IMG/VR virus record: IMGVR_UViG_2859805564_000001
Strand: one strand, 5' to 3'
DNA from: a virus
Taxonomy: Duplodnaviria; Heunggongvirae; Uroviricota; Caudoviricetes
DNA length: 64,000 nt
In this document: one piece after another, positions 39,001 to 42,000 of the stretch
Numbering within the stretch: position 1 is the first letter of the stretch
How the letters are laid out: each line of letters begins with the position of its first letter
Program-made: the position numbers

Positions 39001-42000
39001 TATTATAACTGGAAAAGAACTCCTTATGATCGACCGATTTATACCACATCCACTGGTGCTACAGGAAATAAAATATATTCCTGTGAGCATTATTCCGGCG
39101 GTGCAACATGGGATATTCGAAAGCCGTATATAGATAAGGTCCTAGTTATTAATACATCAGTATATGATTAGTTGAAGCGAGTCTTTAATATTCATTTAAA
39201 ATGTCTAAAAAGATGTATTATTAAAAAGTTTAGCGTGTTATCTGAATACAGGATATCTTAAATGAAGAGTATAGCAACACTGGTTGTGTGTGCAATCTCC
39301 GGGATTGCCTGTGTAAATTTATCTGCACATGCAGCAGAAGGAAACCATACAATTTCTCTGGGGTATGCGCACTTTCAGTTTCCGGGACTGAAGGATTTTG
39401 TAAAGGATGCGACTGCTCATAACAGGGAGACTTTCAGTCATTTCGTCAACAGAAACTACTTTTCTTCATTGGGCGAATATACAGATGGTCGGGTCAGTGG
39501 ATATGAAGGCAAGGATAAAAATCCACAGGGCATTAATATCAGGTATCGCTACGAGATAACGGATGATTTTGGCGTTATCACCTCTTTTACATGGACGCGT
39601 TCTCTCACTAACTCACAGACATTTATTGATGTGCAGTCAGCCGATCATACCAGGAAGATTAAGAATCCGGCAGCTTCTGCCAGAACGGATATCAGGGCGA
39701 ATTACTGGAGTCTGTTAGCGGGGCCTTCATGGCGGGTTAATCAGTACATGAGCTTATATGCGATGGCAGGGATGGGCGTTGCTAAAGTTAGCGCTGACCT
39801 GAAAATTAAGGACAATATTAACAGTAGTGGCGGATTTTCTGAAAGCAACAGCACGAAAAAAAACTCCCTTGCGTGGGCTGCAGGTGCACAGTTTAACCTG
39901 AATGAGAGTGTTACACTGGATGTGGCTTACGAAGGTTCCGGCTCTGGCGACTGGCGCACGAGTGGAATTACTGCTGGCATTGGCCTGAAATTCTAACCTG
40001 TATCCGGTAACCGTTTACTACCCGCTGTGATGGCGGGTTTTTTATTGCCCGTACAGGGCAAAAACCGTAAATTATGCGTGGGTGCCTTTCGGCTGATGGC
40101 TGGAGGGTGAACCTGAAGGCCTGATGTGGAAAGGCCCCGAGTCAACTTAACGTTAACCCGAGGCCCTAACACTTCGTACCTTGACAAGTAGAAGGTTAGC
40201 GCCTCTCCACTCAGGAGGCAAGCGCTATGTCGCAAAAATCGCTTATCACCGTCACAATTTGTATGACGGTTATCTTCACTATCTGGATGTTGCACGGTTC
40301 GCTGTGTGAGTTCCGGCTGAATTTGTGGGGAGCGGAGTTTGCGGCGTTCTTACAGTGTAAGCAGTAGGAAAACCGCGACGGGGACGAAAGTCCCCGTCAA
40401 CTGGTTGCTGAGGTTCAGCCGATATGGCACCCGTTTCAGGTGAGAGAATGAACGATAAAATTCTCCGGTATATGCAGCGTGTGGTGAGAAATTCCCGCAA
40501 CCCTGAATTTATGAATGAAGTTAAAGACGCCTGCCTTAAAAAGCAGGCGTTTTGTTTTGAGGCACCTGATGGCTTTCTGGTGCTGCGTTCTGTGCTCAGT
40601 GCTGATGGTATCCCTTATGTTCTGGTGTTGCTGGGCGTGTGTACGGGGAGTAACAGCGTTGAGCGTTATCTGCCGGAGGTGAAGACATTAACCCGTCTGG
40701 CTGGCGGACGTTGGGCTGAATTTCATACGGCAAGGCGGGGATTTATCCGGCTGGGAAAACGTCTGGGCTTTGAGCGAATGCCGGATGATGAGGATGGCTT
40801 CATGGTGTTCAGGATAGCGGTCTGACTGCCACAGTTTTCATCATCGTGTTTAAACCAACATTGCAATTCACATTCTGACCCTGCTCCGGCAGGGTTTTTT
40901 TATTATCCAGGGGGGCCATAATGGGCGGAAAAAAAGGCGGTGGTGATACCAAAGTAAAACCAACAGCAGCGCAAATAGCACAGGAAGAAGTGGCCTGGAA
41001 AGGGTGGCAGGATTATCAAAAAATCCTCCGCCCGGCTGAAGATAACTTCATGGAAAAGGTCGATGACCTGAACAGTGAGCAGCAGTACGACAATATTGCT
41101 GGCACCACAAATCTGGGGTATCAGAAACAGTTTGGCGAAGCACGGAAGGAACTGGCGGGTAATCTTGCTCAGTCCGGTGTTGACCCGTCCAGTGGTCGCT
41201 TTAACGCGGTAATGAATGCGAACCAGAGTGATCAGGTAACCGGGCAGATTGACACAACCACACGGGGGCAGGTATCGCAGGCAGATAAGTATGTTGCCGG
41301 GCTACAGGATGTTGCAGCTCTCGGTTCAGGTCAGAAGGCGGATGCGTTACAGAGTTTTAACTCGCTGGCAGACAGCAGTCTGGCAAAAGCTAAATCGGAC
41401 GCACAGGCTGCGTTTACGAAACAGCAGGGGCGAGCCTCTCTTGTTGGCGCTGGTTTGGGTGCGGTAGGTGCATATGCGATGCATAAGGCTGGTGGTAGCG
41501 GAGGAAGTGGCGGTGCTAAAACACCGGGCACCGGCGCTAATGCCATTCAGCATCAGGCTCAGAACTGGAGACTGTGATTATGGAGTACGGTAAATACGAA
41601 ACACTTGCGAGATACGGTTATACCGGAGCTGCCCGTCCACAGGGTGACTGGCAGACGTCAGCAGCGCTGACACGCCAACAATACGACGACTGGCGAACCA
41701 GATATTTGCCCCGCGTGGCAAGGCTGGCTGACCTTGGCGAGAACAACAGCCTGATGAATGCACAGCTTGCCCGGGTGGGCGGCCTTGCCACTTCCAGTCT
41801 CCGTACAGCGCAGATGGCGCAGGATAACCAGATGGCGAGATACGGGGTAAGCCGCCCGGATAATCCCGACAGTAATACGCTGGGGTTACGTAATGCCCTG
41901 GCAATTGCTGGCGCGAAAAATGGTATCCGTGAAGCCGAACAGGATCGCCAGATGAACATACTGACGGGGGCTTCTGCACCGGCAAGACAGAAACTGAGTG

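Follow-up and report, generated by a model that had tools for sequence, protein, structure and literature searches.

How does a gene for an outer-membrane protein come to lie among the structural genes of a phage, and does it belong there to the late programme, or does it travel as cargo with an expression of its own? The question is raised by the lom gene of IMGVR_UViG_2859805564_000001, a Caudoviricetes sequence of 64,000 nucleotides (nt), referred to as a whole as the window. A preliminary description had placed a lom-like gene at positions 39262-40045, and had read it as independently expressed cargo. In our analysis, lom is very probably a moron-type cargo cassette of a Shiga toxin (Stx) phage, encoding an outer-membrane barrel of the Ail/OmpX type which is expressed in the lysogen independently of Q, and is likely to alter surface properties. 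The cassette would consist of an AT-rich 5' spacer, an open reading frame (ORF) and an intrinsic terminator, inserted as a whole in the late structural operon. Its elements are the following:

39262..39996, + strand: lom ORF, a single ORF of 244 amino acids (aa) plus stop, predicted to encode an Ail/Lom-family eight-stranded outer-membrane beta-barrel
39172..39261, + strand: AT-rich intergenic spacer 5' of lom, 90 nt, presumed site of a lysogen-active promoter
39250-39253, + strand: ribosome-binding site of lom, AGGA, 8 nt before the ATG
39262..39333, + strand: putative Sec signal peptide, residues 1-24, MKSIATLVVCAISGIACVNLSAHA, cleavage predicted after AHA and before AEG
39379..39525, + strand: loop-1 insertion, residues 40-88, ~44-49 residues in extracellular loop 1, which defines a 'long' Lom subfamily
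40020..40046, + strand: Rho-independent terminator of lom, hairpin at 40020-40038 followed by TTTTTTATT

The ORF corresponds to the gene formerly described, and the right limit given at that time, 40045, is the end of the T-tract of the terminator.

The origin of the locus is readily traced. Over the 2.8 kb surrounding lom, the window and Shigella phage Ss-VASD do not differ (100% identity), and many Stx phages of the 933W/phi24B type (Sepvirinae, Traversvirus) reach 98-99.7% identity; in all of these phages the gene is annotated Lom. Judged by this similarity, the window derives from a Traversvirus, a short-tailed Stx phage of the 933W/phi24B type, and the gene corresponds to lom (LomW), which has previously been annotated and studied by experiment. 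Of 5426 complete E. coli genomes, 338 carry the same allele at an identity of at least 95%. Lom of phi24B (ADN68466.1) is identical to the window protein at 241 of 244 residues, the substitutions being N28E, N201T and I236V, and the 120 nt preceding the ATG, thus the entire spacer, are 100% identical in the two phages. In turn, the orthologues of 933W, VT2-Sakai and Min27 are 100% identical to phi24B Lom (Riley 2012; PMC3342100). The window lom by itself therefore is nothing new: annotations of the gene exist in hundreds of genomes of Stx phages and E. coli, its expression in lysogens has been measured, and its product has been tried as an antigen against enterohaemorrhagic E. coli (EHEC).

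Because the two proteins are nearly identical and the spacers are the same, expression data obtained for phi24B bear directly on the window. Monitored by quantitative PCR, phi24B lom is strongly expressed in lysogens, and its level does not change on induction (PMC3342100). The RNA sequencing data of Veses-Garcia et al. 2015 (Table S4; PMC4651098) are in the same vein. On induction lom transcripts rose 3.0-fold, a change that was not significant (p 0.14); the increase was 15.5-15.8-fold in the tail genes that precede lom, 7-8-fold in the genes that follow it, and 50-140-fold in lysis, stx and replication genes. The published data on this near-identical locus show that lom is an expression unit of its own, active in the lysogen and uncoupled from induction. 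The notion of an independently expressed cargo gene is thus backed by experiment, and was already known. Of the former claim, expression in the lysogen holds; the promoter responsible for it could not be located by consensus.

Composition and signals set lom apart from the genes around it. As formerly noticed, the upstream region is AT-rich, the GC content being 24% in the 100 nt preceding lom, 46% in the ORF and ~50-55% in the flanking structural genes. The terminator, also correctly recognized in the preliminary description, starts 24 nt past the stop codon, and is made by an 8-pair stem, in which 5 pairs are G-C, and a T-tract. The hairpin is part of the minimum-energy structure (-15.5 kcal/mol) calculated by RNAfold for the interval 39995-40050, and is retained 3' of a lom allele which is only 64% identical. 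The same terminator insulates the hok/sok locus located downstream. No terminator-like site was found by scanning the interval between the upstream gene and lom. Two candidate features were discarded. A promoter candidate spotted by hand in the spacer, TTGAAG (39172-39177) and TAAAAT (39197-39202) separated by 19 nt, was the best seen, but is too weak to be claimed. An antisense ORF of 100 aa (39993-40295, - strand), which overlaps both the terminator and the hok/sok region, has no support and is regarded as spurious. Distinct base composition, a terminator of its own, and the nature of a discrete, exchangeable unit documented below are traits of morons.

The protein belongs to the Ail/Lom family, as had been proposed. 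The match to the Pfam profile PF06316 (Ail_Lom; 6.2e-32, 111.4 bits, with a gathering cut-off of 23) spans residues 88-244 and profile positions 48-199; OMP_b-brl and OmpA_membrane are further Pfam matches, and PHROG_108, denoted 'Lom outer membrane protein', matches the protein over its full length (1.1e-78). Scores obtained with NCBIfam equivalogs fall far below the cut-offs, both for Rck/PRK15240 (NF011777, labelled Rck/PagC; 96.3 versus 258 bits) and for OmpX (NF006917; 67.9 versus 176 bits), so that window Lom is a member of the family, not an orthologue of Rck or OmpX. The solved structures matched best by sequence are lambda Lom (9wso_C, 5e-24), Yersinia Ail (3e-19) and OmpX (1e-10). 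An AlphaFold2 (AF2) model, calculated with 35 homologues, has a mean predicted local distance difference test (pLDDT) score of 86.2 and a predicted template modelling score of 0.76, and folds into a barrel with strands at residues 29-39, 89-98, 103-126, 138-158, 163-184, 191-212, 217-226 and 234-243. DSSP assigns one additional short strand, 73-81, in loop 1, beside the helix of this loop. When the Protein Data Bank was searched with Foldseek, the top fold match was Ail (3qra; E 1e-17, template modelling score 0.81 on the target), followed by OmpX (1qj9); a search in a viral structure library retrieved generic phage outer-membrane barrels only. According to the preliminary description, its reading would be refuted if beta-barrel topology were lacking; the barrel emerges both from AF2 and from Foldseek, and the reading is not refuted. 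At the level of the model, window Lom is confirmed as an eight-stranded, antiparallel outer-membrane beta-barrel of the Ail/Lom family.

Both ends of the protein fit an exported barrel. The signal peptide was called by inspection of the sequence; this segment has a low pLDDT in the model (44-54), and is the most variable part among lom alleles. The C-terminus reads GIGLKF, and the last residue, F244, is invariant in our alignment of Lom proteins (A1). A C-terminal phenylalanine is typical of the substrates of the beta-barrel assembly machinery (BAM). The distinguishing element of the protein resides in loop 1. Residues 41-67 of the insertion are predicted to form an alpha-helix (pLDDT ~91), and the insertion is missing, in the same alignment, from the 199-aa Lom proteins of prophages. 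Members of the long subfamily measure 230-250 aa, and also loop 2 is longer in them than in the 199-aa proteins; loops 1 and 2 are the variable ones in alignment A1. Window Lom could be aligned to its lambda counterpart by BLASTP and phmmer from residue 85-89 onwards only, with residues 38-84 left unaligned by phmmer. A long-loop Lom subfamily marked by a ~44-residue, largely helical insertion in loop 1 is a new detail provided by this analysis.

Lom was said to be set inside the tail gene block, and the genes on its two sides bear this out:

36987-38255, upstream of lom: J-like needle/tail-tip gene (Phage_Tail_Tip, phrog_496)
38270..39171, + strand, directly upstream of lom: two small genes, encoding proteins of 92 aa (phrog_557) and 205 aa (phrog_425), with PHROG matches of 8.7e-36 and 4e-81, respectively
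40080..40367, + strand, directly downstream of lom: hok/sok type I toxin-antitoxin locus

The products of the two small genes, p92 and p205, are candidate BamA-binding receptor-binding proteins (RBPs) located at the needle tip; the corresponding phi24B proteins, gp55/gp54, have been proposed as the needle-tip RBP (phi24B cryo-EM preprint). The hok-like locus had been described as immediately following lom, and so it does: hok (40227-40367) matches Pfam HOK_GEF (4e-8), NCBIfam HokA (9e-10) and PHROG_251 (2.8e-24), and Rfam sok is detected with 37.9 bits (E 4e-6), under the gathering score. Farther downstream lie genes for virion proteins, among which a 2806-aa LPD5 ejection protein, known to be packaged in phi24B (phi24B cryo-EM preprint). 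Thus, the needle/receptor-binding genes are separated from the ejection-protein genes by lom and hok, which break into the late structural operon. The association of lom and hok is kept in a Salmonella lambdoid prophage (L013/L014), in which Lom is only ~35% identical, and the gene order is J, phrog_557, phrog_425, lom, hok and tail fibre. Lambdoid prophages of E. coli and Salmonella repeatedly show the order phrog_557, phrog_425 and long lom, with Lom proteins 35-49% identical to that of the window.

Comparison of related loci shows that lom behaves as an exchangeable cassette. In relatives whose flanks are 87-96% identical, identity falls to 72% in lom and to 53% in the spacer, the genes immediately on either side being 92-96% identical. 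The drop occurs at ~39150 and ~40000, and coincides with the stop codons of the upstream gene and of lom, respectively. Being only 53% identical in an otherwise 87-96% identical relative, the spacer belongs to the exchangeable cassette. In 26 loci with a Stx-type context, Lom ranges from 64 to 100% identity, with classes at ~99, 92, 67 and 64%; the corresponding values are 100% for hok, 90-100% for p205 and 89-100% for p92. A 42%-identical allele occupies the slot in L146/L147, and the alleles of the slot overall are 42-100% identical at the amino acid level. L146 (2521-5002) and L147 (3272-5753) come from E. coli draft genomes, and hold a phage of the same Stx-podophage type. Its needle protein is 529 aa long, and includes, as a fusion, a domain similar to the C-terminal immunoglobulin-like receptor-binding domain of J. 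The phage has neither phrog_557 nor phrog_425, and hok and the next gene are 97-100% identical.

The ratio of non-synonymous to synonymous changes (dN/dS), calculated between lom alleles by the Nei-Gojobori method, is 0.1-0.2, with saturated dS; it reaches at most 0.2-0.4 in loop 1, and 0.3-0.7 in the signal peptide. Saturation of dS and low dN/dS denote alleles which are old, functional and moved by recombination, rather than fast-evolving. Positive selection acting on the loops was considered, and is unsupported on the same grounds. The L027/L028 allele differs from that of the window solely in the signal-peptide region, and breakpoints of recombination must therefore fall inside lom as well. 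A recombination island of old alleles, formed by lom and its spacer inside conserved flanks, is the second new detail contributed by this work.

Three other prophage positions were found to hold a long-type lom. In Salmonella the gene lies between tail genes M and L by sodC, and in other prophages close to the integrase end; it is also seen as a tandem pair. The occurrence at multiple positions is the behaviour expected of a moron. In Salmonella Gifsy-like prophages (L011/L012, 6001-7331; L148/L149, 5001-5720) the gene lies between M and L, and in L011/L012 it adjoins the Cu/Zn superoxide dismutase gene (sodC), located on the opposite strand. The tandem genes (244 and 247 aa) are found in L007/L008 (6161-7744) behind the phrog_557/phrog_425 pair, and a Fic/Phd toxin-antitoxin pair follows them on the opposite strand. 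A wider scan of genome contigs for long-type Lom added no further independent contexts, since nearly all matches were short-type Loms, Ail/OmpX-like proteins or what seemed to be contaminating lambda. To the latter category belong near-identical lambda-type lom genes on low-coverage contigs (L107-L118), several of ~48.4-48.5 kb, assigned to unrelated bacteria such as Amycolatopsis, Neobacillus, Pseudomonas, Shewanella and others, which look like contamination by lambda control DNA.

The following scenario may account for the function of the cassette. In the lysogen, lom would be transcribed from a promoter independent of the late (Q) circuit of the phage. Lom would be exported via its Sec signal peptide, and its barrel inserted by BAM into the outer membrane of the host. 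The parts projecting from the cell surface would be the long strands and the enlarged loops, chiefly the largely helical loop-1 insertion, and Lom would hence be displayed on every lysogen. To judge from the homologous lambda Lom, Ail, Rck and PagC, the surface of the lysogen may be changed in terms of adherence to host cells and/or resistance to complement, which to us is the most likely role of the protein. Adhesion or serum-resistance activity is established for Ail and Rck. Adhesion to buccal cells has been reported for lambda Lom. As to surface exposure and relevance to the host, indirect indications are that immunization with 933W lomW as a DNA-vaccine antigen reduced EHEC colonisation in mice (PMC5003871), and that Lom peptides accompany phi24B virions on purification.

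Some data weigh against the moron reading, as to both expression and role. A consensus sigma-70 scan of the + strand of 39172-39261 detected no promoter, and the outcome was the same for the regions 5' of three other lom alleles (L005, L007 and L013); with the consensus scan negative, a promoter proper to lom is deduced from the expression data only. The failure to detect a consensus promoter is a third new detail of this analysis. Adhesion and serum resistance are attributed to window Lom on account of its relatives, with which it shares 28-30% (Ail) and 36% (lambda Lom) identity over the barrel only, and the functional loops of Ail and Rck are not conserved. Moreover, recent results obtained with lambda Lom are indicative of a role directed at phages instead (bioRxiv 10.1101/2025.02.28.640651).

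These latter data suggest a different use of the same protein. Lom might bind the receptor of its own phage, BamA in phages of the phi24B type, and thereby reduce the adsorption of sister phages to lysogens or to late-infected cells. Masking might serve as superinfection exclusion, or guard the progeny against wasteful re-adsorption, and finds a precedent in the action of lambda Lom on LamB. In the structure 9wso two chains of lambda Lom are deposited along with three chains of the maltoporin LamB, the receptor of lambda, and over-expressed lambda Lom strongly blocks lambda-vir, not T7 (bioRxiv 10.1101/2025.02.28.640651). The gpJ-LamB complex 8xcj was obtained with the same LamB sequence as that present in 9wso. 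The window lom directly follows the candidate BamA-binding genes, much as lambda lom directly follows J, and the order of the two small genes and long lom is preserved in lambdoid phages of E. coli and Salmonella despite the low identity of the Lom proteins. Similarly, in L146/L147 the replacement of the receptor-binding module by the J-like fused domain goes along with a 42%-identical lom, next to well conserved downstream genes. Yet, lysogens of phi24B are multiply infected by the same phage at high frequency although they express lom (PMC3430580), Lom varies from 64 to 100% in the Stx slot while the candidate RBPs stay at 89-100%, and some long-type lom genes are remote from any RBP gene. 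Among short 199-aa Loms, the identity of the receptor-binding domain of J (43-99%) and that of Lom (83-100%) are uncorrelated (rho 0.16, n=55). A strict co-variation of Lom and RBPs is thus unsupported for short Loms, and is confounded by linkage for long ones. Lom had no match in a PADLOC search for defence systems, and, BamA being essential, its tight binding by Lom could be costly. The tests carried out here lend weak and mixed support to masking in this phage, and we deem it rather unlikely. A more specific version, according to which long-loop Lom would be the counterpart of lambda Lom, the helical loop 1 would contact the surface loops of BamA and tune the access of sister phages, and the diverse alleles would reflect an arms race, looks quite unlikely.

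Alternatively, lom could be a plain late gene, transcribed in the Q-dependent late operon only, and have a lytic role, for example in the disruption of the envelope together with the holin. The location inside the late operon in the same orientation, the failure to find a consensus promoter, and the lack of terminator-like sites between the upstream gene and lom would all agree with this view. Families of lom and holin genes are often co-transferred among lambdoid phages (PMC9836094), and lambda lom expression is reported to rise strongly late in infection (quoted in bioRxiv 10.1101/2025.02.28.640651). The high level of phi24B lom in uninduced lysogens, its 3-fold induction versus the 7-16-fold induction of its neighbours, and the distinct composition and proper terminator of the cassette make this explanation very improbable. 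As lom resides among structural genes, and Lom peptides co-purify with phi24B virion preparations (phi24B cryo-EM preprint), the protein might also be envisaged as a virion or tail accessory component. The authors of the preprint take Lom as a contaminant, and the cryo-EM model contains no Lom. With its Sec signal peptide and a barrel fold integral to the membrane, the protein would rather originate from outer-membrane vesicles or debris than be a component of the virion, and the likelihood of this latter possibility is close to nil. The moron-type cassette, expressed in the lysogen, remains the reading we favour.

Other features of the window were recorded during the survey. Terminator-like hairpins are found 3' of the 133-aa phrog_610 gene (40877-40896, + strand), and at the 3' end of the hok transcript region (40376-40399, - strand). 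Upstream of the needle gene, one gene is listed from 35300 to 36730 (476 aa); its homologue in relatives is 541 aa long, and reaches the start of the needle gene. Elsewhere, Rfam matches above the gathering score correspond to STnc100 (195 bits, 16511-16724, + strand), and to sRNA-Xcc1, C4 antisense RNA and isrK (4531-4614, 5450-5537 and 5563-5638, - strand). No tRNA gene was detected by ARAGORN in the whole window.

At most, mild novelty may be claimed for the organization of lom as an island of alleles, for the insertion in loop 1 and for the idea of BamA masking. Lom, plausibly exposed on the surface of most lysogens of short-tailed Stx phages, comes in several deeply diverged, recombining alleles, and this matters for LomW vaccines and diagnostics. 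Now that lambda Lom has been deposited in association with the lambda receptor, whether Stx-phage Lom acts on BamA becomes a direct question. If true, such an action could revise the 45-year-old view of lom as a virulence moron.

Among known systems, the Stx phages 933W, VT2-Sakai and phi24B have the same gene in the same slot, with p205 on one side and hok on the other. Lambda Lom (NP_040601, 206 aa; presumably chains C and D of 9wso) belongs to the same Pfam family, and lambda lom likewise is located directly after the receptor-binding tail-tip function, has a terminator behind, and is expressed in lysogens. The lambda protein is 36% identical to window Lom along residues 89-244 only, and is devoid of most of the loop-1 insertion; lambda lom has a GC content of 50-54% and a terminator-like hairpin upstream, where window lom has an AT-rich spacer instead. 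The receptors also differ, lambda using LamB, and phages of the phi24B type BamA. Ail of Yersinia, Rck/PagC of Salmonella and OmpX of E. coli share the eight-stranded barrel with long protruding strands. They are 22-30% identical to window Lom, are made of 148-157 mature residues versus ~220, and their adhesion- and complement-binding loops are not conserved in it. In contrast to the morons of phages, a concept associated with Hendrix and Juhala and exemplified by lambda bor and lom and by HK97 gp15, window lom shows no sigma-70 promoter recognised by the consensus scan, and in its slot replacement of alleles was observed, rather than alternation of presence and absence. In base composition, terminator, setting among structural genes, expression from the prophage and variety of positions, window lom resembles them.

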